Shown: positions 9,422 to 22,625 of the stretch, piece by piece
Layout: every line of letters begins with the position of its first letter
Numbering within the stretch: the stretch's first letter is position 1
Program-made: the position numbers and the translations under genes
Assembly: GCA_018649245.1 (NCBI GenBank)
Contig: JABIIH010000286.1
Span: forward strand, 1 to 41,236
Direction: 5' to 3'
From: Rhodospirillaceae bacterium
GTDB taxonomy: Bacteria; Pseudomonadota; Alphaproteobacteria; Rhodospirillales; UBA2165
Length of the DNA stretch: 41,236 nucleotides
The notes under the pieces: generated by a model
Told to the model about the DNA's origin: nothing
What the model saw: the letters and a program-made list of their open reading frames with translations, nothing else
Database searches by the model: none

Positions 9422-10312
9422 GTGACCAATCAGCAAACTCAACCTACTCAAAGCAATATTCTCCTTGGCATTCTCTTGACCATTGCCGCTGGTAGCGCGA
9501 TGGCGATCATGGATGCGATTAGCAAACATTTAACCGGCTCTTTTAATGTCGTGCAGGTGCTCTGGAGCCGCTATTTTTTTCATGCCATTATTGTTGTTGT
9601 TTATCTTTTGGCGACCCGCTCACGCTCGGTTTTCAAATCTAACCGGCCGGTGACCCAACTGCAAAGATCGTTTGCGCTATTTGCCGCCACGGCAGCGATG
9701 TATACGTCTCTGGTCTATCTGCCCTTGGCTGATGCCGCTGCCGTACAGCACGTTGCCCCGATTTTGGTGACAATCATATCCGCCATATTTTTGGGCGAGA
9801 AAGTTGGGCTCAGGCGTTTTGGCGCCGTTGTCGCCGGCTTTATTGGTGTGCTGATCATTATTCAGCCGGGTGCGGAGTTTCAATGGCCGATTTTACTGCC
9901 GCTCATCACGGCGGTTATGCTGGCGATATTCTTAATCCAAACTCGGACGCTGCAAGAACATGATGATGCCTACACCACGCTGTTTTATTCAACACTTGTC
10001 GGTGTGGTTGTGTTTATCGCCATCGTGCCCTTGGTGTGGCGGCAGCCGACGCTTGATGAATTTTTATTGATGTGCGTTCAAGGCAGCCTCGGCGCAATTG
10101 GGCATCTTATGCTTATAAAGGGCTTTAAATACGCTTCTGCCTCGGTGCTGGCGCCGTTTCTCTATTCACAGTTGCTGGTGTCGGTGATCCTCAGCGTGAC
10201 ATTCCTCGCCGATCCGCTAACCGTCATGATGCTTGCTGGGGCCAGCCTCATCGTCGCCAGTGGTATCTACATCTGGCATCGTGAAGTCTATTTGGCGGCG
10301 CATGCTACTTAA
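9422..10312 (+). CDS. DMT superfamily (EamA-like) transporter
   Basis: 296 aa with GTG start. About 10 hydrophobic helices in two EamA-like halves. Last gene of the plus-strand operon. Confidence 0.85.
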   Translation: MTNQQTQPTQSNILLGILLTIAAGSAMAIMDAISKHLTGSFNVVQVLWSRYFFHAIIVVVYLLATRSRSVFKSNRPVTQLQRSFALFAATAAMYTSLVYLPLADAAAVQHVAPILVTIISAIFLGEKVGLRRFGAVVAGFIGVLIIIQPGAEFQWPILLPLITAVMLAIFLIQTRTLQEHDDAYTTLFYSTLVGVVVFIAIVPLVWRQPTLDEFLLMCVQGSLGAIGHLMLIKGFKYASASVLAPFLYSQLLVSVILSVTFLADPLTVMMLAGASLIVASGIYIWHREVYLAAHAT

Positions 10313-10808
10313 AATAAATCGACTTGGTTGTCGGATCGAAACCGACGACGGCGATCTCGCCCGGTTTTAATTCGATTTTTTGCGCGAATTTATACTGCGC
10401 TCCTGTGGCAGTCTCGGCTTCATACAGTTGCACCAGAACTTCATGACTACCGGCGGGTACGGGGAAGCGTTCGTAAAATAAAGAGCGCCCATCATTGGAG
10501 AGACCGGAGGGTTCTGAAACTGCTTCGAAAACTGTTTTGCCGTTGATTTTAAGTTGAACGGTCACCGGATGGCGCTCGCGTGGACAGTCCATGAGTTTAC
10601 GGGCAGTCTTAGGAATATTGCGTTGATGATCGATGGCTCGCTCTGTGCAAGGATGTATACGTTGCCCAGGATGACTGATCGCGAGCTTAACCAGTGCCTG
10701 ATCTTCGCCGAACGGGTGGTAGGTAGGCTGGCTGGCAAAATAGCCAATTCCCAAGGCAAAAAGGAAATAGGCAAAACCCTGGCCTAGGATATCTAACAAG
10801 CGTTTCAT
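10305..10808 (-). CDS. Hypothetical membrane-anchored protein, translationally coupled to the cyt b-FeS fusion gene
   Basis: 167 aa. One N-terminal TM helix (FAYFLFALGIGYFA) followed by a soluble domain with two Cys. Its start overlaps the upstream stop by 4 nt (ATGA). No family recognised. Confidence 0.6.
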   Translation of the reverse strand: MKRLLDILGQGFAYFLFALGIGYFASQPTYHPFGEDQALVKLAISHPGQRIHPCTERAIDHQRNIPKTARKLMDCPRERHPVTVQLKINGKTVFEAVSEPSGLSNDGRSLFYERFPVPAGSHEVLVQLYEAETATGAQYKFAQKIELKPGEIAVVGFDPTTKSIYFK

Positions 10809-12376
10809 TCGGCAGCCTCCTGCCCAGTCTTTCCACTAACATGCGGCAATTGCCGAAGATGTTCGGTAAAGGCAGCGATCTCGTCACTCAGCTTAGCGCC
10901 ATCGGTGACCGCACCCCAGCAGGTCCAAACCCGCTCCCTGGGCACCCGCTCGCGTAGATAAGGATCACGCTCACCAGTTAGCCGCTGCTCGGTCCAATTG
11001 ATGCCGAAGCGATGGTAGCAATCTCCTTCCCGGCAGCCGGTGAGCAACACACCATCGGCCTTATCACGCATCAGAATATAATCAATAAAAGACGGCGGCA
11101 GCATTCCAATACAGGGCAGACGGGTGACGACGACATTGGCGTCTTTGATTTGCTCGACATCGATACCAAAATCGCAGCCATAGATGATAATCCGGGGTGT
11201 ACCCGGCGGCAGAATTTTTGGTAATTTGGCGAGCGAAGCATCGGTATCGGCGCGTAACTCGGTCAGACGGAAATGCGGCAGATCAATCCCGGTCACCAGC
11301 ATGTCAGCGCTTCTGAACGGTGTTGCGGTCGGACACGCTCCGACACAAATACCACAGGATGTGCAAATATCCGGATCAACAGAGGCAATGCTGGGATAAG
11401 GCCGACCATCTGTTCTTGGCTGCATGGTTACCGCCCCGAATGGGCAATCGGCATAGCATCTCGAACAGCCATTACAGTTGAGGTTATCAACTTCGGCGGC
11501 CTCTTTGATTTTGAGACTTGGCATCCACGGCAGCCAGCAGACAAAGACGGAAAGAGTTATGGCGATGAGCCAAAGTGCGCCGGCACCCCACATATCAAAT
11601 AGGGGGTAGGCGAGGGCGTAATACCAATCCAGATCAACAGTGGTGACGACTTTATCAAGATTGGCCGGGCCATGACTAATAGCGGGTTTAACCAGTGATA
11701 GTGCCAATAGCATCAGCAATGTGCCGATGGCCAAGCCGCGTGGTGGATTAATGCGGGGCCGGCTGATTTTGACGACATGAACAAAGCAAGCTATCAATAA
11801 AAACAGCGGGATGGCGATATGCAGAAACAGCAAAAGCGAGAACATGCGGTCGCTGAAGCTTGCTGGTGTCAGAAAGTTGTTAGCCAGCGGCTCACCAAAT
11901 ATGCCGAGCCAATCCAACCATTCTGACGAGGCGATCATGAGATATTGCGCGAGTTCATCCCAGACCAGCCAATAGCCACCGATGCCCGAGGCATAGAGCA
12001 GCCATATGATGGGCACACCGGAGACCCAGGTAAACCACCGGACTCCGCGGTAACGGTCCATGATGAACTCCCGGCCCATATGAATGAAAGTCGTCACCAC
12101 CATGGCGTCGGAGGCATAGCGGTGAAAGCTGCGCATAATGCCACCAGCATACCACTGATCATGGGTCATGCTTTCCACCGATTGGAAGGCCCCGGTGACG
12201 CTGGTTTCAAAAAAGATGTAGACGTAGATGCCACTGACCGCGACGATCCAGAAAAAGTAAAATGACAAGGCGCCAAGATGACGCAAAGGGTTCCATTCCG
12301 GACCAAAAGGGCGATCGAACCAACCTTCAAATTTCAGCAGAACTGCTTGAAGGGGACGCTGAATATTTTTGAGCAT
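10805..12376 (-). CDS. Fusion protein: dihaem cytochrome b-like membrane domain + 2x[4Fe-4S] ferredoxin + MvhD/FlpD-like domain
   Basis: 523 aa. Two H-x13-H pairs in TM helices (FHRYASDAMVVTTFIH, LHIAIPLFLLIACFVH). CNGCSRCYADCP and CTSCGICVGACP. C-terminal YGCDFG...LPCIGMLPP...KADGVLLTGCREGDCYHRFG. Confidence 0.75.
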   Translation of the reverse strand: MLKNIQRPLQAVLLKFEGWFDRPFGPEWNPLRHLGALSFYFFWIVAVSGIYVYIFFETSVTGAFQSVESMTHDQWYAGGIMRSFHRYASDAMVVTTFIHMGREFIMDRYRGVRWFTWVSGVPIIWLLYASGIGGYWLVWDELAQYLMIASSEWLDWLGIFGEPLANNFLTPASFSDRMFSLLLFLHIAIPLFLLIACFVHVVKISRPRINPPRGLAIGTLLMLLALSLVKPAISHGPANLDKVVTTVDLDWYYALAYPLFDMWGAGALWLIAITLSVFVCWLPWMPSLKIKEAAEVDNLNCNGCSRCYADCPFGAVTMQPRTDGRPYPSIASVDPDICTSCGICVGACPTATPFRSADMLVTGIDLPHFRLTELRADTDASLAKLPKILPPGTPRIIIYGCDFGIDVEQIKDANVVVTRLPCIGMLPPSFIDYILMRDKADGVLLTGCREGDCYHRFGINWTEQRLTGERDPYLRERVPRERVWTCWGAVTDGAKLSDEIAAFTEHLRQLPHVSGKTGQEAAE

Positions 12377-12390
12377 GTTATTTTAAATCT

Positions 12391-13326
12391 TTATATCGTC
12401 GAGCCGTTCGAAGTCTCGGAGTGTTGGTCGGCGGGCTTAAACCATAAGCGCCAGATATTTTTAACCAGGAAACTGCCTATCAATAAAAGGACAACAGCGC
12501 TGAGGAACATACCGATAAAGAATGAATAATCAAACCGATATTTACCGGCATAGGGATCGTAAATAGTGCAAAATAATTTTACCTGGTTGAGCAGAGAGTC
12601 AAAGCTTGTCAAAGACTTGGCAGTGCCGAGCAGTAATTGTTTAAGCGGTTCGGTAAGCCGTGTGGCTTCGAAGTCCTGGCCGTAAATCTGTGCATAAACT
12701 TCACCTTTGGCATCAATTAATGTGGTTTGAGTGAGGTGATCAAAGCCTTTAGGTGAGGTGAAATAGATAAAACCGGTATCGGCAGAGAGGCGTTCGACAA
12801 CATCTGGTTTGCCGCTTAACACCTGCCAGTTCGCATCACCGACAGCTTGTTGCTTGGCAAATGATTTCATCGCGCGCGGCGTATCTCGAAGCGTGTCGAA
12901 ACCAACTGAGATTACATTAAAATCTGCAGATCCGAGAGCCTCGCGGGCATCTTTGACGGCATCCATTAAATTCTGGGTCATCACAGGGCAGGTATGGGCA
13001 CAGCTTGAATAAACCATACTAAGCACCAATGGTTTACCCAGATATTGATTAAGATTAACAATTTTATTTTCTGTACTGATGAACTTGTAATGTCCAACTG
13101 TCTTACCGATGGCGGATTGACTGTAATTGTAAGCTGCTTGGGGTTCGAACTTGGCAGCGCCGGGGAAAGATTCTTTGGTGACGGTTCGAGCTGATTGACC
13201 CGGCTCCTGATGAGAGGATTTTGCACTATCATCATGCGCTTGGACAGGCGTTGCAGCAATAAGGCTCATTACAATTAGAATAATGATAACCCATAAACCG
13301 CTTATTTTTTTCGCCCGTAAATTCAT
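12391..13326 (-). CDS. SCO1/SenC family copper chaperone / thiol-disulfide oxidoreductase
   Basis: 311 aa. Thioredoxin-like CxxxC in VYSSCAHTCP, downstream FDHLTQT His. N-terminal signal-like peptide (…ATPVQA/HDD) and a C-terminal TM helix (FFIGMFLSAVVLLLIGSFLV). Confidence 0.85.
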   Translation of the reverse strand: MNLRAKKISGLWVIIILIVMSLIAATPVQAHDDSAKSSHQEPGQSARTVTKESFPGAAKFEPQAAYNYSQSAIGKTVGHYKFISTENKIVNLNQYLGKPLVLSMVYSSCAHTCPVMTQNLMDAVKDAREALGSADFNVISVGFDTLRDTPRAMKSFAKQQAVGDANWQVLSGKPDVVERLSADTGFIYFTSPKGFDHLTQTTLIDAKGEVYAQIYGQDFEATRLTEPLKQLLLGTAKSLTSFDSLLNQVKLFCTIYDPYAGKYRFDYSFFIGMFLSAVVLLLIGSFLVKNIWRLWFKPADQHSETSNGSTI

Positions 13327-13421: not shown

Positions 13422-15116
13422 TTAACTGAGGCCCCAAGTGGAGGCTAGGAATTTCCAGTTAACAAAGAAGTACAGCACAAACACGGCCAGGAATATAAGG
13501 GCCAAGGTGAAGGTGCCGGATACATTGGCAACGCCTGCGCTGCCATGTGCCGTCATTGCAGATGGTACATCAGCGACGGGTGGCTCTGGTGCCGCTGCTG
13601 CCGGAACCTCGTCACGGTTTTTACCCCATAACAACGAACCAACAATCACGACCACGAACATCACGCCGCCGATCGTTGCAATCGTTGCAAAGACGCCATT
13701 GATGCCCATCATCAGATGTGCCAGTGCCGGATGATCAAACTTAATCGCCGCATCGGCGTAGGTGATATCCCAGTGACGGCGGGAAATACCCAAAGTGCCG
13801 GCACCCATCATGGCAAGCGAGATACCTGCAACGCCTAAGCCGAAGAAGTATGGCTGCCATTTAGCCCAACCCGGCAAGATGAGTTCACGCCGGAACAAGA
13901 CTGGCACCAGCCAATAGGTGATCGCCATAAACGCCAAGGTCGTACCCGCGGCAACTGTGCCATGGAAGTGACCCGGTACATAAAGCGTATTGTGGACAAT
14001 GATATTGACCTGTTCTTGGCCCATGATCACGCCAGTAATACCACCCAGTACGCCAAACAACACCAAGGAGATGAACATGCCCGAGAACACCGGGTTACCC
14101 CAAGGAGCTTTACGGAGCCATTCAAACAGCCCGTTGGTGTAGCCTTTTTTGCGTTGAGCTGCTTCGATCGCACCTGGTACCGTCAGGCCGTGGATCATAC
14201 TAGCCATCACTGCGAGATAGAGCAGATAGCTGGTATTGACGATCTTCCATTCCGAGCTTAGCCCCGGTTCCACCAGAAGATGGTGAGCCGATGCTAATTG
14301 CAGGAACAAGATGTACATCAGGAAGGCAAAGCGGCTAACTTTTTCCGACAGTGGTTTTGCACCGAACAGAATAGCTGCAATGGCGTACCAAACCGCAATA
14401 TGAGCGGCGACGTTGATTTGCTGGGATGAGTGACCCATTGCCCACCAAATTACTTTGTACATCAACGGATCAATGTAAGCGATCAAGCCCACCGACCAAA
14501 GGAAGGTCGGGATTAAAATTACGGCACCCGAGGCAATAGTGAAAACGGCGATAATAGCTGCCGTCATTGCTCCGAAAGTGACGAGCGGGATTGAGCCTTC
14601 ATAGGTCTTTTCAGCTTTAGCGATTACCAAAGTGGCGAAGAAGACTGCACAGCCACACAAAGCACCGACAGCAAAGACAATGATGCCGATATAGAACAAT
14701 GGATCGGCCTGCATTGGCACATACGAGGTGAACATAACATTCGATTCACCTTGCAAGACAATAACCACTGTCAGCAAAGCACCAATTGTCATCAGCCAGT
14801 AGCCGAGCCAGGCCAGTTTTGGCAGCGCCAATCTCACATTCAGCAATATAGAGGATGCAAAATAAAGCAAGGCCATCTCAAAATAGATGAGCCAAACCAG
14901 CAAGATGACAATGCCATGGGCGGTTAGCACCATGTAAAAATCATCGGCACCCAATAGATGGATTTCAGGCCATCTGGTTAACGCGACAAGAAAGCCGAGC
15001 AAACCACCAATTGCCAAAAAGACAATACTGGTTACGGCATTCCACTTAATTAGTTTTTCGCCAGCGAGATCGACTTTAAAGCCGGTGTCGGGGCAAATGC
15101 GATAAGGACTAGTCAT
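13422..15116 (-). CDS. Heme-copper oxidase subunit I, B-family-like, lacking the His-Tyr cross-link tyrosine
   Basis: 564 aa, about 13 TM helices. Haem ligands LTAHG and VHNTLYVPGHFHG. CuB ligands GH(229) and ASAHH(278/279)LL. Collinear by eye with ba3-type subunit I, but GHSSQQ replaces GHPIVY. Confidence 0.9.
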   Translation of the reverse strand: MTSPYRICPDTGFKVDLAGEKLIKWNAVTSIVFLAIGGLLGFLVALTRWPEIHLLGADDFYMVLTAHGIVILLVWLIYFEMALLYFASSILLNVRLALPKLAWLGYWLMTIGALLTVVIVLQGESNVMFTSYVPMQADPLFYIGIIVFAVGALCGCAVFFATLVIAKAEKTYEGSIPLVTFGAMTAAIIAVFTIASGAVILIPTFLWSVGLIAYIDPLMYKVIWWAMGHSSQQINVAAHIAVWYAIAAILFGAKPLSEKVSRFAFLMYILFLQLASAHHLLVEPGLSSEWKIVNTSYLLYLAVMASMIHGLTVPGAIEAAQRKKGYTNGLFEWLRKAPWGNPVFSGMFISLVLFGVLGGITGVIMGQEQVNIIVHNTLYVPGHFHGTVAAGTTLAFMAITYWLVPVLFRRELILPGWAKWQPYFFGLGVAGISLAMMGAGTLGISRRHWDITYADAAIKFDHPALAHLMMGINGVFATIATIGGVMFVVVIVGSLLWGKNRDEVPAAAAPEPPVADVPSAMTAHGSAGVANVSGTFTLALIFLAVFVLYFFVNWKFLASTWGLS

Positions 15117-15128
15117 AATCTTTTTCCC

Positions 15129-15674
15129 CTACTTGCTGTCTTTGACATACATTTTGCCGACCATGGTATGGTGACCAGAGCCGCAAAATTCGTTACAGAT
15201 AATGCCAAATTCACCGGAACTCGTTGGTGTGATGGTTACGACCATGTCGTAATTTGGATGAACTTGCAGATTGATATTCTCCGGTTGCAGCGAAAAGCCA
15301 TGCTGGTAATCCAAGGAAGAAAGATGCAATCGATAGCTCTTACCTTTTTCGAGTTCCAGAATTGGCCACCAATCCCACAAACGAGCCAGCATATAAACGT
15401 CGCTGCCAGCAGGTGGTTTAACTACTGGGACATCGTTGTCGCCTTCGACTCTTACTTGATATTTTTTGGCAAAAGCCTCAGTTTTCTCAGCATATTTGTC
15501 GGCGGTTATTTTATATGCTTCGTTAGATAAATTCTGGTCGCCTGTCAGATGCCAGTACGGCATCATGAAAAACATGATCAAGCCCCAGATAAAAGCAATG
15601 GTAACCCAAAGCACTTCGGTTTTTTCTACCGGCTTTGACCACCATATGCGATCTTCAGGAGGATAAATTGACAT
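15129..15674 (-). CDS. Heme-copper oxidase subunit II with CuA centre (short, single-TM, ba3-like)
   Basis: 181 aa. One TM helix (VLWVTIAFIWGLIMFFMMPYW). Full CuA motif: H in YQHGF plus CNEFCGSGHHTM (CxExCGxxHxxM). AAGAGG SD upstream. Confidence 0.9.
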   Translation of the reverse strand: MSIYPPEDRIWWSKPVEKTEVLWVTIAFIWGLIMFFMMPYWHLTGDQNLSNEAYKITADKYAEKTEAFAKKYQVRVEGDNDVPVVKPPAGSDVYMLARLWDWWPILELEKGKSYRLHLSSLDYQHGFSLQPENINLQVHPNYDMVVTITPTSSGEFGIICNEFCGSGHHTMVGKMYVKDSK

Positions 15675-15736: not shown

Positions 15737-15907
15737 CTATGGAGCGAGAGGGATGGCGGTGATTTCAATAATTCCCCAGATGATGTAAACCACCGTCGGA
15801 ATTGCAACGCCCAAAAACAAAAGTAAGAAATGATTATCCAAGAACCGCTGCATGAACGGAATATCCGCATCTGATGCAGGCGGTGATGGTTGATCTGAAG
15901 GTGTCAT
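15737..15907 (-). CDS. Unlisted 56-aa single-TM peptide upstream of the oxidase genes
   Basis: My codon-by-codon translation gives MTPSDQPSPPASDADIPFMQRFLDNHFLLLFLGVAIPTVVYIIWGIIEITAIPLAP, then TAG. GGGGA lies 7 nt upstream of the ATG. It is below the apparent size cutoff of the ORF track. It sits 62 nt upstream of subunit II on the same strand. Confidence 0.45.
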   Translation of the reverse strand: MTPSDQPSPPASDADIPFMQRFLDNHFLLLFLGVAIPTVVYIIWGIIEITAIPLAP

Positions 15908-16079: not shown

Positions 16080-16093
16080 TTGACGTAGATCAA
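16080..16093. promoter_or_regulatory. FNR/DNR-type box TTGAC-GTAG-ATCAA
   Basis: 9/10 match to the TTGAT-N4-ATCAA consensus. It lies in the 248-nt divergent region, about 62 nt upstream of the Crp/Fnr regulator start and about 173 nt upstream of the 56-aa ORF. Confidence 0.55.
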
Positions 16094-16155: not shown

Positions 16156-16860
16156 GTGGTTATGCGCGATAGTGATCGACACTATTTTAATCAGCATCCG
16201 TTGTTCAATCAAATCGATGACGAGTCATTGGATCGGATCATTGCTGGCAGCTCTGCTACTGATTATGCCAAAGGTCAGACTATCTTTCATCGTGGTAACC
16301 CGGCAGATGTTTTTTATTTTGTGCTCGAAGGCTGGGTTAAAGTCTATCGCAGTACAGCTGAAGGCGATGAGGCAATTGTCCATATATTTAGCGCAGGTGA
16401 AACCATTGCTGAAGCCGTTGCCTTTGCTGGTAAAAATTATCCGGTCAGTGCGCAAGCGGTGGAGCATTCTCGGGTCGTGCCCATCTTGACCAAACGGCTG
16501 GTTGCTGAATTGTCGCGGTCACCAGAACTCGCCTTGTCTATTATGGGTTCTTTGTCACTTCAGCTACACAGCATGGTAACCGAGATCGAACAATTGAAAA
16601 CCCGCACTGCTACCCAACGAGTCTGCGATTTCTTCATCCGGCGCTGCACTGTTGATGAGGGATCAGTCGTTATTTCCCTGCCTTATGACAAAGTGATTAT
16701 TGCGTCACGTCTTGGCATGAAACCGGAAAGTCTGTCTCGCATTCTAAATCGGCTGCGGAAAATCGGTGTGAGAACCGAAAATGGCCGGGTTGCGATTGCC
16801 GATGTCGAGGCTCTCATCCGGTTTAGCGATGGCGAGTCAGCGATATCTCTAACCGGCTAA
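16156..16860 (+). CDS. Crp/Fnr family transcriptional regulator (Cys-less, Dnr/NnrR-like)
   Basis: 234 aa (GTG 16156, alternative ATG 16162; GGAG at 16146-16149). cNMP-binding-like beta-roll (GQTIFHRGNPADVFYFVLEGWVKVYR). HTH with E--SR recognition motif (MKPESLSRILNRLRK). No N-terminal Cys cluster of true FNR. Confidence 0.85.
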   Translation: MVMRDSDRHYFNQHPLFNQIDDESLDRIIAGSSATDYAKGQTIFHRGNPADVFYFVLEGWVKVYRSTAEGDEAIVHIFSAGETIAEAVAFAGKNYPVSAQAVEHSRVVPILTKRLVAELSRSPELALSIMGSLSLQLHSMVTEIEQLKTRTATQRVCDFFIRRCTVDEGSVVISLPYDKVIIASRLGMKPESLSRILNRLRKIGVRTENGRVAIADVEALIRFSDGESAISLTG

Positions 16861-17442: not shown

Positions 17443-18903
17443 ATGCTGAAAACAGGTAAGGAACATCTTGAGGGCCTGAGAGATGGCCGCACGGTTTTTA
17501 TTGGTAAAGAAAAAGTCGATGACGTCACCACCCATCCAGCCTTTAAAAATGCGGCGCAGACAGTAGCTGATTTATACGATATTAAACACGATCCCGAACA
17601 CCGTGATACCATGTCATTTGAAGAAGATGGCGAGCGTTATTCAATGTGGTTTCTGCGCGCTAAAAGTCAGGATGATCTTCGTCAGCGCACGCAGGCTCAC
17701 AAAAAAATTGCTGATCTGTCTTGTGGTTTGTTTGGTCGCTCACCCGATCACGTATCGAGCTTCGTCACCGGCATGTCGACCAACCCATCGGCGTTCGATT
17801 CGGAAGAAAACAAGTTTGGCGACAATCTGATGAACTACTACGAACATATGCGTAAAAACGATATTTTTGCGACTTATGCCGTGTTGCCGCCGCAAGCTGC
17901 TCGCAATCCTGAATTTTATGAATCGCAAAATCTTCCAGTACCTACTTTACGCGTTGTCCGGGAAGACGATGATGGCGTCGTTATGTCGGGGATGAAAATG
18001 CTGGCGACCAGCGCCGTCTTTTGCGATGAAATTTGGGTCGGTAATCTGCTGCCCTTGGCGCCTAATCAATTGAAGGAATCGATCACCTGTGCGATTCCTT
18101 GCAATGCCGAAGGCTTGTCGCTCTGGATGCGCCAACCAATTTCGTTGAACGCGGCCAATGAATTCGATAGTCCATTAACCTGGAAATACGACGAGACCGA
18201 CGTGTTGGTTTTATGTGACGAAGTTAAAGTGCCGTGGGAGAAAATCTTTGTCATGGATGACACCGTTCGATCACGCGGGGTCTATACAGAAACGCCAGGG
18301 CATTGTTACGGCAATCATCAATCGAATGTCCGGTTTTGGTCTAAAATGCAGTTGATCCTTGGTCTTTGTTCAAAAGTAGCCCAGGCCAGCGGTGCGAATG
18401 AAATTCCTGTCGTGCGTGAGACTATCGGCCGCATGGCAGCGCTCGAGGCGACTCTCGCGGGTATGATTCACGGCCAGATTGAAGCGGCCGAAGAATGGCC
18501 GGCGGGCTACAAAACCTACAATCGCCGGATGATGTATGCGGCGCTCAATTGGTGCACCGAAAGCCATTCGCAGATCGTTGATGTTTTACGCGAGCTGTGC
18601 GGTGGTGGCGTGTTTCAAATGCCGGCTAGCGTCGATATTATGCATGATGCCGAACTTAAGGCAGATTTTGAAAAATATTTCCAAACGCCACAATTGGCTG
18701 CCCTTGACCGCATGAAATTGTTCCGGTTGGCCTGGGATTTTGTTGGTTCTGAATTTGCCGGTCGGCAACAGCAATATGAAAAGTTTTATGCCGGGGCGTC
18801 CTTTATCGTGCGCAGCCACTCGCACCGCGAAGCTGATTGGGACTTTTTTGATGGTATTGTTGACAATATCATGGCGGATTATGACGTGCCGGAACCGGTT
18901 TAA
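17443..18903 (+). CDS. HpaB-family (group D) flavin-dependent monooxygenase, oxygenase component
   Basis: 486 aa. The N-terminus EHLEGLRDGRTVFIGKEKVDDVTTHPAFKNAAQTVADLYD closely parallels E. coli HpaB as I recall it. The C-terminal LAWDFVGSEFAGRQQQYE block also matches. Confidence 0.85.
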   Translation: MLKTGKEHLEGLRDGRTVFIGKEKVDDVTTHPAFKNAAQTVADLYDIKHDPEHRDTMSFEEDGERYSMWFLRAKSQDDLRQRTQAHKKIADLSCGLFGRSPDHVSSFVTGMSTNPSAFDSEENKFGDNLMNYYEHMRKNDIFATYAVLPPQAARNPEFYESQNLPVPTLRVVREDDDGVVMSGMKMLATSAVFCDEIWVGNLLPLAPNQLKESITCAIPCNAEGLSLWMRQPISLNAANEFDSPLTWKYDETDVLVLCDEVKVPWEKIFVMDDTVRSRGVYTETPGHCYGNHQSNVRFWSKMQLILGLCSKVAQASGANEIPVVRETIGRMAALEATLAGMIHGQIEAAEEWPAGYKTYNRRMMYAALNWCTESHSQIVDVLRELCGGGVFQMPASVDIMHDAELKADFEKYFQTPQLAALDRMKLFRLAWDFVGSEFAGRQQQYEKFYAGASFIVRSHSHREADWDFFDGIVDNIMADYDVPEPV

Positions 18904-19002: not shown

Positions 19003-21141
19003 ATGGAAAGATCGTTTCACAGGGAAATAGAGCAGCTTCGCCAAGGCGATAACGGTAAATTTCAAGGCGAAGGTATTCTGGCTGTTACCAAAGCAATCCT
19101 ACAGTCCGGCGTCGGCTATGTCGGCGGCTATCAAGGTGCGCCGGTCTCTCACCTGCTAGATGTGCTGGTTCAAGCCAAAGATTTGATGGCTGAGCTTGGT
19201 GTTCATGTCGAAGCGAACTCCAATGAAGCGTCGGCGGCTGCCATGCTGGGCGCTTCAATCAATTATCCGATCCGCGGTGCCGTTACTTGGAAATCAATTG
19301 TCGGCACCAATGTTGCCTCTGATGCGCTGTCTAATCTGGCGAGCCCTGGCGTCAAAGGCGGCGCGATGATTATCTCAGGCGAGGATACCGGCGAAGGGGC
19401 CAGTGTTATTCAAGAACGCACCCACGCCTTTGCCATGAAATCGTCTTTGTGGCTGCTCGATCCGCGACCAAACTTGCAAAGCATGGTCGATATGGTGGAA
19501 CACGGCTTTCAATTGTCTGAGGCCAGCAACACTCCGGTGATCCTAGGACTCCGTATCCGGGCCTGTCATGTGCAAGGTGATTTCACCACCAAGAACAACC
19601 AAAAATCTCCGATCAATACCATCGACAAAGCTGATCATCCGGCGGCGTTTGAATATGATCGTTTGGCCCATCCGCCAGCGACCTATGCTCAGGAAAAGAA
19701 AAAAGTTGAGGAACGATTGCCGGCGGCGCGGAAATTTATTGTCGACCGTCAGCTCAATGAGTTTTTTGATGGCCGTTACAATAATCTCGGCATCATTCTT
19801 CAAGGCGGGCTCTACAATACGCTGGTTAATCGCCTGAACGTCTTAGGCTTGGGCGATCAGTTCGGCAATTCAGACATTCCCCTGATGGTGCTAAACGTGA
19901 CTCATCCTTTAGTGCCGGATCAAATCACCGAATTCTGTGCCGGTAAGGATGCGGTCATGGTGCTGGAAGAGGGTAATCCTGAATTCATTGAGCACCAGAT
20001 TCACACTATGCTCAGGAAAGCCGATATCCAAACACGCGTTTTCGGTAAAGATATTTTTCCGACCGGCGGCGAGTACAATGCCGAGGCAATTACTAAGGGT
20101 TTGGTCGATTTCCTGGGCGAAGTTGAACCACTGGCAATTGATCAGGAAGCCTTGCGGGATAAAGCCGCTCAACTCTTTAACGATAAAGCAGCTGGCCAGG
20201 AGGTAATGGATATTGCCTTGCCGCCGCGCCCGCCGGGATTTTGCACCGGCTGTCCGGAACGCCCTGTCTTCACAGCGATCAAGATGCTCAAAGAGGAAAT
20301 TGGCGATATTCATATTGCTGCTGATATTGGCTGTCATGCCTTTGCAACCTATGCGCCGTTTAGTATGGGCAACTCGATCTTGGGTTATGGCATGGGGCTA
20401 GCCAGTGCTTCGGCTGTTGGGCCGATGCTCAAAAAGCGCACCATCAGCATTATGGGCGATGGTGGCTTCTGGCATAACGGCTTGCAAACAGGCGTGTTGT
20501 CAAATTTGTTCAATGAAGGCGATGGCCTCTTGATCATCATGCAAAACGGCTACGCTTCGGCAACCGGTCAGCAATATATTCCATCCTCGACGGTGGGTTC
20601 CGATACCACGCCGATGACCAGCGAAATTGAGCAAACTCTCAAGGCACTTGGTGTTAAATGGCTCCGGACCGTACGTACTTACGGGGTGAGCCGGATGCTG
20701 GATACTTTACGGGAAGCCATGACGACCGAACAAAAAGGTCTCAAAGTTATTATTGCTGATAGTGAGTGCATGCTCGCCCGCCAGCGCCGCATTAAAGGTG
20801 AAAATGCCGAAAAACTCAAACGTGGCGCTGAGGTGATCGTGCCGCGCTTTGGCGTTGATGAAGAAATTTGCACTGGTGATCATTCCTGTATTCGCCTGTC
20901 GGGTTGTCCATCTTTGAGCCTTGCCGATAATTCAGATCCGCTTCGGGATGAGCCGGTCACCCAAGTGATCGATAGCTGCGTCGGCTGTGGTCTCTGTGGT
21001 GAGGTGGCTCATGCGGCACAACTCTGTCCGTCCTTTTACCGGGCCGAGCGCATTCAGAACGCCGGCGCATTTACCAAAATGATGGCGGGGTTCAGAAACG
21101 GTGTCATTGGCTGGCTTGCTGGATCGGAGCGGCCCTCATGA
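19003..21141 (+). CDS. iorA: Indolepyruvate/2-oxoacid:ferredoxin oxidoreductase alpha subunit (TPP- and FeS-binding)
   Basis: 712 aa. TPP motif IMGDGGFWHNG...MQNGY. C-terminal Cys clusters CTGDHSCIRLSGCP and CVGCGLCGEVAHAAQLCP. Confidence 0.85.
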   Translation: MERSFHREIEQLRQGDNGKFQGEGILAVTKAILQSGVGYVGGYQGAPVSHLLDVLVQAKDLMAELGVHVEANSNEASAAAMLGASINYPIRGAVTWKSIVGTNVASDALSNLASPGVKGGAMIISGEDTGEGASVIQERTHAFAMKSSLWLLDPRPNLQSMVDMVEHGFQLSEASNTPVILGLRIRACHVQGDFTTKNNQKSPINTIDKADHPAAFEYDRLAHPPATYAQEKKKVEERLPAARKFIVDRQLNEFFDGRYNNLGIILQGGLYNTLVNRLNVLGLGDQFGNSDIPLMVLNVTHPLVPDQITEFCAGKDAVMVLEEGNPEFIEHQIHTMLRKADIQTRVFGKDIFPTGGEYNAEAITKGLVDFLGEVEPLAIDQEALRDKAAQLFNDKAAGQEVMDIALPPRPPGFCTGCPERPVFTAIKMLKEEIGDIHIAADIGCHAFATYAPFSMGNSILGYGMGLASASAVGPMLKKRTISIMGDGGFWHNGLQTGVLSNLFNEGDGLLIIMQNGYASATGQQYIPSSTVGSDTTPMTSEIEQTLKALGVKWLRTVRTYGVSRMLDTLREAMTTEQKGLKVIIADSECMLARQRRIKGENAEKLKRGAEVIVPRFGVDEEICTGDHSCIRLSGCPSLSLADNSDPLRDEPVTQVIDSCVGCGLCGEVAHAAQLCPSFYRAERIQNAGAFTKMMAGFRNGVIGWLAGSERPS

Positions 21142-22625
21142 GTGAAGCGAAGACAGTTAAAATTCTGATTTGCGCCATGGGCGGTGAAGGTGGCGGCGTG
21201 TTGATGAATTGGATCGTCAATGCGGCGTGGCGCAAAAGCTATCCGGTACAGGCAACTTCGGTGCCGGGTGTTGCCCAACGCACCGGGGCGACAACCTACT
21301 ATATTGAACTGCTGCCTGAAGCCGTGCCACCCGGAGCTGTTAAACCCGTCTTTGCCTTAATTCCCACAGCTGGTGAAGTTGATGTTTTGGTTGCGACCGA
21401 GGCCGCCGAGGCCGCGCGGGCTGCCGGTAATGGGTTCATTTCGCCTAACCGTACCCATCTTATTGCCTCAACGTCCCGGGTTTATCTGATGCCGGAGAAA
21501 ATGGCCATGACCGATGGCCGGGTTGATGACGATGAGCTGGCCGATGTCATGGCTAAAAGTGCCCATAAATCGGTACTGTTTGATGCCAATGAGGCTGCCA
21601 AGGAAGCTGGCGCCATCGTCAATGCGATTATGTTGGGTGCTGTTGCCGCGACGGGTGTTATTGGCATTGAACTAGATGACTTTATCGACGCGATCACAGA
21701 TGAAGGTAAAGCTGTTGAGTCTAATATTGCCGGTCTTAGAAGTGGCTTTGAGATTGCCAGCGGTCAAAAGAAAACTGAAGACCAGCCGGACAATGTCGTA
21801 GCCTTATCCGAAGCCGGTACTCAATCTAAATTTCCTGACAGTGTTCAGCCCGTGTTAGATCATGCAACTAAGCGGCTGGCTGATTATCAAAATGAGGCTT
21901 ATGTGGCGAGCTATCTAAACCGCCTCGAAAATTTCAAAGACCGTGATTCAGACTTACTGGAAGTCGTTGCCAAACAATTGGCGCTTCGGATGTCTTATGA
22001 AGATATCATCCGCGTCGCCCAGGCTAAAATTCGCGCCGAACGATTTGAGCGTATCAGAAATGAAACCGGAGCAAATGCAGATGATATCGTGATTGTCACC
22101 GAATTCTTTAAACCTGGCGTCGCTGAAATTAGTGATCTCCTGCCGAGCGGTCTGGCCAAAAGTCTCATCGCTTGGGGTGAGAAAAATAATAAGATGGATA
22201 ATTTTGGCTTTGGCATGGAGGTGAAGACCTCGACCATAACCGGATTTTTGAAATTATGGTCTCTGGCCAAGCTTAAATGGTGGCGGCCAAAATCCAATCG
22301 CTGGCAAGTTGAACAAGCCAATATCGAGGATTGGCTGGAATTAGTGGAGTCGGCGTCTGTTCTCAATGTAAATTTCGCTGTTGAAGTAGCAGAGCTTGCC
22401 CGCCTGATCAAAGGCTATGGCAGCACCTACCGCCGGGGGATGCGCAATTATTCCCGTATCGTTGAAGAATATGTCCGGCCACTGGTGGCGGCAGGTGCCG
22501 TATCAGGCGAGGCAACGGAACAGGTAAGACGGGCCCGCGATGCTGCAACCTCCGATCCGGATGGCGCAGATTTAAATAAAATATTGTCAGATATTCAAGT
22601 TCCAGGAACGATCGCCGCAGAGTAG
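21138..22625 (+). CDS. iorB: Indolepyruvate oxidoreductase beta subunit with extended C-terminal domain
   Basis: 495 aa. 4-nt ATGA overlap with iorA. N-terminal ILICAMGGEGGGVLMNW (gamma/beta-subunit GGxGG loop). The long C-terminal extension is typical of proteobacterial IorB-like proteins. Confidence 0.8.
   Translation: MSEAKTVKILICAMGGEGGGVLMNWIVNAAWRKSYPVQATSVPGVAQRTGATTYYIELLPEAVPPGAVKPVFALIPTAGEVDVLVATEAAEAARAAGNGFISPNRTHLIASTSRVYLMPEKMAMTDGRVDDDELADVMAKSAHKSVLFDANEAAKEAGAIVNAIMLGAVAATGVIGIELDDFIDAITDEGKAVESNIAGLRSGFEIASGQKKTEDQPDNVVALSEAGTQSKFPDSVQPVLDHATKRLADYQNEAYVASYLNRLENFKDRDSDLLEVVAKQLALRMSYEDIIRVAQAKIRAERFERIRNETGANADDIVIVTEFFKPGVAEISDLLPSGLAKSLIAWGEKNNKMDNFGFGMEVKTSTITGFLKLWSLAKLKWWRPKSNRWQVEQANIEDWLELVESASVLNVNFAVEVAELARLIKGYGSTYRRGMRNYSRIVEEYVRPLVAAGAVSGEATEQVRRARDAATSDPDGADLNKILSDIQVPGTIAAE

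Follow-up and report, generated by a model that had tools for sequence, protein, structure and literature searches.

A di-haem cytochrome b/iron-sulfur/MvhD-type fusion protein and its membrane-anchored partner, encoded with eNOR-type nitric oxide reductases, form a candidate electron conduit

What does a single polypeptide that joins a di-haem cytochrome b, two [4Fe-4S] motifs, and an MvhD/FlpD-like [2Fe-2S] domain do among the genes of a heme-copper enzyme? The question is raised by a 523-amino-acid (aa) fusion protein encoded at 10805..12376 on the minus strand of contig JABIIH010000286.1 (41,236 nucleotides; the whole of this stretch is called the window), which belongs to the Rhodospirillaceae metagenome-assembled genome (MAG) GCA_018649245.1. 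A sequence-only reading of the window had described the three modules, had taken the neighbouring genes for those of an oxidase, and had proposed the fusion as a dedicated electron-input wire for that oxidase. The present analysis identified the neighbour as an eNOR-type nitric oxide (NO) reductase, paired the fusion with the 167-aa product of the gene that follows it (orf167), and found a very tight link between the fusion and eNOR across genomes. We give about even weight to the reading in which the pair forms a transmembrane conduit without a Rieske protein and supplies eNOR with electrons from a cytoplasmic reductant, with the 167-aa protein as its periplasmic part.

The fusion protein and its 167-aa partner

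The fusion was delineated from the open reading frame (ORF; ATG start), Pfam and NCBIfam matches, conservation, and an AlphaFold (AF2) model. Its coding strand is the minus strand, and the plus-strand translation of 10805-12376 contains many stops. All the motifs quoted in the sequence-only reading were present in the minus-strand ORF, and a domain hidden Markov model scan bore out the three-module fusion: matches to Pfam Cytochrome_B (PF00033; residues 33-204, 60.4 bits against a cut-off of 27.2), Fer4_7 (4Fe-4S dicluster; residues 300-351, 40.8 bits against a cut-off of 27), and FlpD (PF02662; residues 413-510, 48.6 bits against a cut-off of 22.3, 9.8e-13) all exceeded the gathering score.

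The membrane domain (aa 1-290; 11507..12376, minus strand), defined by hydropathy, DSSP analysis of the model, Foldseek, and phmmer, comprises six helices, with haem ligands H85 and H99 on helix B and H186 and H200 on helix D. These residues form two H-x13-H pairs, the bis-His spacing of bc1-type cytochrome b that had been claimed for them. The domain matched cytochrome b6 chains in phmmer (1e-15) and superposed on complex III cytochrome b over approximately 290 columns (Foldseek template modelling [TM] score by target, 0.55-0.58), and it therefore corresponds to helices A-F. Helices G-H (or helix G of subunit IV) are absent from the chain, which has six helices only before the iron-sulfur (FeS) domain and no Pfam Cytochrom_B_C match. 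Helix E is followed, before helix F, by a Qo-like motif, L-D-W-Y-Y (249-253; family consensus, LDWFY), which occupies the place of the PEWY motif of bc complexes and which we take to resemble its PDWY variant.

The two-[4Fe-4S] ferredoxin domain (aa 294-352; 11321..11497, minus strand; Fer4_7, 3e-10) contains two C-x2-C-x2-C-x3-C-P motifs, spanning residues 301-312 (C301/304/307/311) and 338-349 (C338/341/344/348). The C-terminal MvhD/FlpD-like domain (aa 395-510; 10847..11194, minus strand) has four cysteines, C401, C422, C448, and C453. That this domain is of the MvhD/FlpD type, as the sequence-only reading had held, was supported by the FlpD match, by an NCBIfam hit (1.6e-19) in which residues 293-511 align with the final 200 residues of the HdrA2 model (its ferredoxin and MvhD part), and by phmmer matches to solved MvhD chains (9sw2_D, 7.6e-11; 5odc_D, 2.4e-6), with whose cysteines C422, C448, and C453 align. 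Across 56 relatives with identities as low as 26%, all four His residues, the eight ferredoxin cysteines, C401, C422, and D250 were invariant, and C448 and C453 were conserved in at least 90%.

The AF2 model of the fusion (mean predicted local distance difference test score [pLDDT], 93; predicted TM score, 0.90) agreed with hydropathy in showing six membrane helices and, after them, a compact alpha/beta part. Because there are six helices and the N-terminus lies inside as in cytochrome b6, the FeS/MvhD region is predicted to face the cytoplasm.

A frameshift artefact, which had been named as a possible refutation, is rejected, because thousands of database proteins have the same architecture. 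In a word-indexed search, more than 5,900 clusters at 90% identity matched the fusion; among the 120 best matches listed, the FlpD and Fer4 families were found in all and the cytochrome b family in 119, the other being a partial 361-aa record. An exhaustive HMMER search yielded 520 clusters at 50% identity with E values of 1e-30 or lower. The database names of these proteins are "cytochrome b N-terminal domain-containing protein" or "hydrogenase iron-sulfur subunit."

The functional unit proved to be larger than the single polypeptide to which the sequence-only reading had confined it. Directly downstream, with a 4-nucleotide (nt) overlap, orf167 (10305..10808, minus strand) encodes a protein with an N-terminal membrane helix (residues 2-25) and a periplasmic beta-sandwich, as indicated by the overlap, synteny, and the AF2 model (pLDDT, 93). 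Wherever the downstream flank was long enough, an orf167 gene was found behind a fusion gene; in most loci the two were immediate neighbours, and in a few orf167 came after a second tandem copy of the fusion or after a hemerythrin gene. Furthermore, 64 of the 150 best representatives of the 50% identity clusters were approximately 690 aa long, the extra C-terminal 170 residues consisting of a seventh helix and the orf167 domain, and a structure search of the ESM Atlas retrieved other splits of the same parts (tail and FlpD only, or tail, Fer4, and FlpD) in other phyla. The functional unit is thus the pair of the fusion and orf167, often as a single chain. In two proteins, P0256 and P0267, the tail is extended by a CxxCH mono-haem cytochrome c domain in the C-terminal ~100 aa (Pfam Cytochrom_C for P0267), which places the tail in the periplasm, in agreement with the predicted topology. 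In locus L082, a further cytochrome c gene follows.

No Pfam or NCBIfam family matched orf167, even at an E value of 10, and Foldseek with its model returned generic beta-sandwiches only (CBM20/41, PepT, and HGSNAT luminal domains), with TM scores of 0.4 or lower and E values of 1e-3 or worse. Only G102 and G120 are invariant. A role as a Rieske substitute or metal site was considered and dropped, since the two cysteines and the histidines near them vary in distant tails; we read the domain as a docking or scaffold domain and not a redox centre. The orf167 stop region overlaps the convergent gene of an EamA-family transporter (9422-10312, plus strand) by 8 nt (10305-10312), which leaves no room for a terminator.

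Association with eNOR genes across genomes

On the minus strand of the window, the gene order is a 56-aa ORF, heme-copper subunit II, subunit I, SenC, the fusion, and the 167-aa ORF, with spacings from subunit II on of 12, 95, and 14 nt and then the 4-nt overlap; the 14-nt gap between SenC and the fusion (12377-12390) is as had been reported. Subunit I (13422..15116, minus strand; Pfam COX1, 4.4e-66) has a G-H-S-S-Q-Q segment that aligns with H233-P-I-V-Y237 of the Thermus thermophilus ba3 oxidase, as do all six His ligands, so that a Gln occupies the position of the cross-linked Tyr237. The same Gln was found in every full-length subunit I encoded beside a fusion gene, very distant ones included. 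The residue at this position is family diagnostic, being Q in eNOR, N in sNOR and CuANOR, and D in gNOR (table reproduced in PMC8756737). The enzyme had been called a Tyr-less oxidase; the absence of the Tyr is confirmed, and the assignment as an oxygen oxidase gives way to one as an eNOR-type NO reductase with an intact CuA site, which the diagnostic residue and the ligands identify at the level of sequence. NO reductase activity without O2 reductase activity has been shown only for the Rhodothermus marinus eNOR (PMC11214002). The sNOR of the norSY-senC-orf1 clusters of ammonia oxidisers was rejected as an assignment, the residue at the Tyr position being Gln and not Asn, and it was also disfavoured because the fusion is unlike the fourth gene of sNOR/bNOR clusters, which in Bacillus and Nitrosomonas encodes a protein of approximately 190 aa with six transmembrane helices (PMC3475470).

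Subunit II (15129..15674, minus strand; NCBIfam CoxB and NosZ C-terminal matches) has one membrane helix and a complete CuA site (H125, C160, C164, H168, and M171), the ligands of which were invariant in 37 homologues. The SCO1/SenC copper chaperone (12391..13326, minus strand; Pfam SCO1-SenC, 9.5e-14) has a C109-x3-C113 motif and hydrophobic segments at its N- and C-termini. The 56-aa ORF directly upstream of subunit II (15737..15907, minus strand), with one hydrophobic helix read from the sequence, may encode a small third subunit by analogy with subunit IIa of ba3 oxidases; genes of 40-58 aa adjoin the subunit I/II genes in related clusters as well.

A total of 41 loci from species-representative genomes were compared, of which 39 held the fusion protein (45-97% identity). 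They came from Rhodospirillaceae, Hyphomicrobiales, Woeseiaceae, Thiogranum, and other gammaproteobacterial MAGs, and in all 39 the order norS-norY-(ctaB)-senC-fusion-orf167 was kept wherever the flanks reached. Magnetospirillum has a homologue of the fusion, P0061, that is 57% identical. A gene of the UbiA family (haem O synthase-like) and CtaA were often added in related clusters, which fits the published presence of ctaA in many eNOR operons (PMC11214002).

Co-occurrence was surveyed in an even set of 401 genomes of the phylum, the window genome included. Matches to eNOR subunit I had E values of 1e-170 or lower, with a gap without matches from there to 1e-60. The full-length fusion was present in 53 genomes and eNOR subunit I in 50; 49 genomes had both, 4 the fusion only, 1 eNOR subunit I only, and 347 neither, counts that cover related and not independent genomes and are descriptive, not a statistical test. 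The four fusion-only genomes were incomplete or highly fragmented MAGs, and the single eNOR-only contig ends directly after senC. Among the genomes searched, no complete genome with the pair and without eNOR was seen. The proposed survey of the fusion against the Tyr-less heme-copper enzyme thus gave a very tight link, which extends to gene order: distant relatives from other phyla (28-56% identity; one of them in a Methylomirabilis MAG) all had COX1 and SCO1 genes as neighbours (with UbiA/CtaA in some).

In one family, norS-norY-ctaB-senC and fusion-orf167 were separated by 12 kb, 13.5 kb, 20 kb, or approximately 930 kb or were divergently adjacent. Even there, the fusion and the 167-aa gene were never separate from each other. 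The position of the fusion directly after SenC therefore holds at the window locus and does not hold in general, and a specific functional tie to SenC, to which the 14-nt spacing had pointed, was dropped because the pair is unlinked from senC in that family.

Related clusters yielded several further observations. In family f38 (G069:C1, at L079:6666-9853, and approximately 15 other genomes), two full-length fusion paralogues lie in tandem, followed by one orf167; the two copies are 43-51% identical to the window protein, and both keep the haem and cluster ligands. The detached fusion-orf167 pair of genome G086 has a convergent neighbour, the cd1 nitrite reductase gene nirS (L075:6813-8558, plus strand). 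A short COX1-like paralogue of 459-498 aa, in which G-H-x-L-Q-F/Y is present and the His-His metal ligands are absent, was found at L079:10392-11777, L081:5323-6759, L083:1237-2655, L085:4902-6281, and L087:4020-5516, and it is fused behind cytochrome b in protein P0239; none was found in the window genome. Hemerythrin-domain genes lie inside or near eNOR clusters (L085:3828-4220 and L087:16056-16520), and in the Methylomirabilis MAG one stands between the fusion and orf167. The hemerythrin proteins may sense or buffer O2 or NO.

The MAG of the window (2.85 Mb in 295 contigs, 69% complete) has a nirS cluster with three cytochrome d1-domain genes on another contig (C11, 7735-13493), and the organism can therefore make NO. 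Besides eNOR, it has two heme-copper genes with high-scoring COX1 matches, taken from their sequences to be ordinary oxidases, and one bc1 cytochrome b; neither nirK nor any other NOR-type heme-copper gene was found in this 69%-complete assembly. There was no [NiFe] hydrogenase or HdrA-type flavoprotein near the fusion.

The genes around the cluster are unrelated catabolic genes (aromatic and acyl-CoA). A gene for a Crp/Fnr-family regulator (FtrB-like; 16156..16860, plus strand; Pfam cNMP_binding and HTH_Crp_2, NCBIfam FtrB, 5e-40) is divergent to the cluster, and the divergent promoter region contains an FNR/Dnr-type box, TTGACGTAGATCAA (16080..16093), with one mismatch to TTGAT-N4-ATCAA, a putative site found by consensus match only; the 41 kb contain only seven FNR-type sites with one mismatch or fewer. 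A Crp/Fnr-family gene lay within the 7-kb flanks on either side in 13 of the 39 related loci and was divergently adjacent in the closest relatives, L001 and L002. Further away (19003-22625, plus strand), two adjacent genes with TPP_enzyme_C and POR + DUF6537 domains, resembling indolepyruvate/2-oxoacid:ferredoxin oxidoreductases, adjoin an HpaB-type hydroxylase gene (17443-18903); the location of this ferredoxin-reducing enzyme 7 kb from the eNOR cluster may be coincidental.

Direction of electron flow

In the reading that we favour, a cytoplasmic donor would reduce the MvhD-type [2Fe-2S] cluster, and electrons would then reach the n-side haem b by way of the two [4Fe-4S] clusters, cross the membrane to the p-side haem b, and go on to the periplasmic face, at which the orf167 domain and sometimes a haem c are expected. 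From this exit they would reach the CuA site of eNOR subunit II directly, via a cytochrome c, or via a quinone in the retained Qo-like pocket, and NO reduction would be fed by cytoplasmic reductant without the bc1 complex. We infer the occupancy of the cofactor sites, the direction of flow, the donor, the acceptor, any physical contact with eNOR, and the electron-input function itself.

Exchange of the cytoplasmic modules bears on the direction. In two proteins, P0159 and P0161, the cytochrome b part is 48-52% identical to that of the window protein and the cytoplasmic modules are different: plant-type [2Fe-2S] (Fer2), FAD, and NAD-binding domains replace FeS/MvhD in P0159 (L088:956-2893), and flavodoxin, FAD, and NAD-binding domains replace it in P0161 (L087:8001-10484). 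The P0159 gene has SCO1 on one side and an orf167 homologue (34% identity; E, 4.5e-35) on the other, exactly the place of the window fusion, and the cluster of P0161 contains eNOR subunit I, UbiA, an FeS/MvhD-type fusion with its 167-aa partner, PCuAC, CtaG, SCO1, and NnrS. P0159 and P0161 are both candidates for membrane donors that link NAD(P)H to eNOR. The usual role of NAD(P)H reductase modules is to pass electrons to haems, as in P450 reductase, phthalate dioxygenase reductase, and the NOX/FRE flavocytochromes. An outward direction is argued for by the interchange of such modules, which donate to haem in known flavocytochromes, with FeS/MvhD; by the haem-c tails of some variants; and by thermodynamics, since outward flow is downhill and is helped by the membrane potential. 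The conduit reading as a whole also draws on the association with eNOR, on the constancy of the fusion-orf167 pair, on the predicted topology, on the absence of a Rieske motif from the loci compared and the window, and on physiology (the nirS cluster, the lack of a second NOR-type heme-copper gene in the 69%-complete MAG, and the metatranscriptome coverage described below). Two further fusions were found, of cytochrome b to a COX1-like domain (P0239) and of SCO1 in front of cytochrome b (P0258).

Several points weigh against the outward conduit. No experiment on any member of the family was found, and the genome counts are, as stated above, descriptive. A cytoplasmic partner for the MvhD domain was not found in the 69%-complete MAG, in which the fusion has the sole FlpD domain. 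The CuA site of eNOR could be supplied simply by cytochrome c from bc1. Moreover, purified R. marinus eNOR consists of two subunits and is active in NO reduction with tetramethyl-p-phenylenediamine (TMPD)/ascorbate (PMC11214002; bioRxiv 10.1101/2021.10.15.464467); the conduit is thus not a tightly bound subunit, and catalysis in vitro does not require it. The surrounding genes encode largely assembly factors (SenC, CtaB, CtaA, PCuAC, and CtaG). Finally, D250 at the PEWY position is invariant, pointing to a working quinol site, and the conduit could therefore oxidise quinol instead of being fed from the cytoplasm.

The last of these points leads to a reading that we hold to be improbable, in which the Qo-like pocket would oxidise quinol and bifurcate its electrons, one going to the very high-potential eNOR and the other through the haems to FeS/MvhD or flavin and on to ferredoxin or NAD(P)H, so that NO reduction would pay for reverse electron flow. 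Besides the bc-type cytochrome b with its invariant acidic residue, the service of MvhD domains in bifurcating Hdr complexes, the tandem duplication of the fusion in one family of small genomes, and a proposal of quinol:NAD+ reduction coupled to NO reduction in a Ferrigenium preprint (10.64898/2026.01.22.701106) are in its favour. However, the pocket has no Rieske protein beside it and no other obvious first acceptor: the Rieske motif CxHxGC...CxCH was absent from the 89 loci and the window (904 kb in all), and the same pattern found the genome's bc1 Rieske gene on contig C176. The orf167 domain has no conserved metal ligands, the electrons would run against the membrane potential and far uphill, and the window organism, with aromatic and acyl-CoA catabolic genes nearby, appears heterotrophic and has no obvious need for reverse flow. 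That a Rieske-less Qo-type bifurcating pair would split the electrons of quinol between the strongly oxidising NO/N2O couple at eNOR and a low-potential FeS/MvhD or flavin outlet in the cytoplasm, and would let NO respiration directly yield reductant at the level of ferredoxin or NAD(P)H, we consider slightly harder still to credit.

The assembly genes bear on another reading, rather unlikely in our estimation, in which the pair would export electrons to the periplasm or membrane for the maturation of eNOR and not for its turnover. Possible tasks are the reduction of Cu(II) or of SenC/PCuAC thiols for CuA assembly, the reduction of Fe(III) for the non-haem metal site, and the feeding of haem A synthase, and the analogues would be the eukaryotic FRE metalloreductases and the ferredoxin that feeds Cox15. 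SenC in the window and UbiA/CtaB, CtaA, LpqE-like (PCuAC), and CtaG proteins in relatives fit such a role, as do the single chain of SCO1 and cytochrome b in P0258, the flavin variants, which resemble the NOX/FRE reductases in logic, and the two-subunit R. marinus enzyme, purified without the fusion. Transcription is also consistent with it. When contigs of four marine metatranscriptome runs were compared with the region, norS-norY was covered throughout (word depth up to 18), the 56-aa ORF was covered as well, and senC, the fusion, and orf167 were covered in patches (depth, 2-10), whereas neither flank was covered; coverage of the fusion and orf167 was thus far below that of norS-norY. These data suggest that the cluster is transcribed in situ, with the distal genes at a lower level, with carry-over of DNA as a possible contribution. 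On the other side, the pair is unlinked from senC/ctaB in one family, A- and B-family CuA enzymes need no such protein, and five cofactors, in a protein conserved throughout the eNOR genomes, would be a heavy outlay for a chaperone; the haem-c tails of P0256 and P0267 and the cytochrome b-COX1-like fusion P0239 look like components of electron transfer in turnover.

A third possibility, which we consider very unlikely, is a quinol dehydrogenase of the Nar kind that oxidises quinol on the periplasmic side and sends electrons inward to a cytoplasmic reaction, its link with eNOR being only regulatory or ecological. The known di-haem b/FeS pairs NarI-NarH, HdrE-HdrD, and QmoC work in this way, and the fusion-orf167 pair can be transcribed apart from norSY. 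However, the fusion has no catalytic cytoplasmic domain, its co-occurrence with eNOR is nearly complete (49 of the 50 eNOR genomes in the phylum sample), and the periplasmic partner and the haem-c tails would be left unexplained.

The outcome matters for the biology of NO. By survey, eNOR is among the commonest NO reductases in nature (PMC11214002) and therefore a source of the greenhouse gas nitrous oxide (N2O), and a five-cofactor membrane protein that accompanies it in essentially every genome searched is the obvious missing piece of its electron supply. If the outward conduit is fed from the cytoplasm, N2O production in these organisms would be wired unlike textbook denitrification, independently of bc1 and nearer to the detoxification enzymes Hmp and NorVW. 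If the pair is instead an assembly factor, a new maturation requirement within the heme-copper superfamily would follow; and if it bifurcates, denitrification would gain an energy-coupling mechanism of a new kind, and the pair would serve as a naturally occurring minimal model for the step of the Q cycle at which electrons bifurcate.

Comparison with known systems

No biochemical study of the fusion was found, in line with the sequence-only reading, which knew of none; there were passing mentions only, in a 2026 preprint and a 2022 appendix. The preprint describes two cytochrome b/[Fe-S] genes in the eNOR operon of Ferrigenium straubiae, calls them "rather unusual," reports their proteins in the proteome, and speculates on a supercomplex of these proteins with eNOR; its proposal of quinol:NAD+ reduction coupled to NO reduction concerns a cytochrome b-FeS-FAD-NAD protein (10.64898/2026.01.22.701106). 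The conserved-domain table of the appendix lists a cytochrome b6 + DMSOR-beta-like + FlpD protein, RME88945.1 (PMC8756737), and the main text of the eNOR paper does not include the fusion protein (PMC11214002). The Ferrigenium proteins and RME88945.1 match those of the window in type of protein and in type of operon, the Ferrigenium proteins being likened by description and not by sequence. Beyond the preprint, the present analysis found the fusion in essentially every eNOR genome searched, identified the periplasmic partner, and showed the module swaps.

With the cytochrome b of the bc1 and b6f complexes, the fusion shares homologous helices A-F, two bis-His haem sites with 13-residue spacing on helices B and D, and an acidic-Trp-Tyr motif at the PEWY position. 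In contrast to those complexes, the fusion system has no Rieske protein, no cytochrome c1 or f, and no helices G-H; its C-terminus runs into the cytoplasmic FeS domains exactly at the Qi face, and it is encoded with an NO reductase and not as a stand-alone complex III. The C-terminal ferredoxin and MvhD module of HdrA2 and QmoB and the free MvhD of the Mvh-Hdr complex are matched by residues 293-511 and the aligned cysteines, whereas the hydrogenase, the HdrA flavoprotein, and the heterodisulfide reductase are absent. The module also differs in its covalent link to a membrane cytochrome b and in its host, an alphaproteobacterium that is aerobic or denitrifying.

In NarI-NarH, HdrE-HdrD, DsrM-DsrK, and QmoC, two stacked haems link a quinone site with a cytoplasmic FeS chain across the membrane, as the fusion would, and in QmoC the cytochrome b and FeS parts likewise form a single chain. 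Their cytochromes b are of unrelated families (NarI/HdrE type), so that the likeness is one of analogy and not of membership, and these systems serve cytoplasmic reductases, whereas the fusion goes with a heme-copper enzyme fed from the periplasm. The NOX/FRE flavocytochromes b resemble the flavin-bearing sister variants of the fusion in having NAD(P)H-flavin modules behind a di-haem membrane domain and in passing electrons from cytoplasmic NAD(P)H to an outside acceptor; their ferric reductase fold is unrelated to the bc-type cytochrome b, and the window protein has FeS/MvhD in place of flavin. Set beside these systems, the fusion appears as a new variation on the di-haem cytochrome b/FeS conduit, in which the cytochrome b is of the bc type, a Rieske protein is lacking, and the whole is dedicated to an NO reductase of the heme-copper kind.

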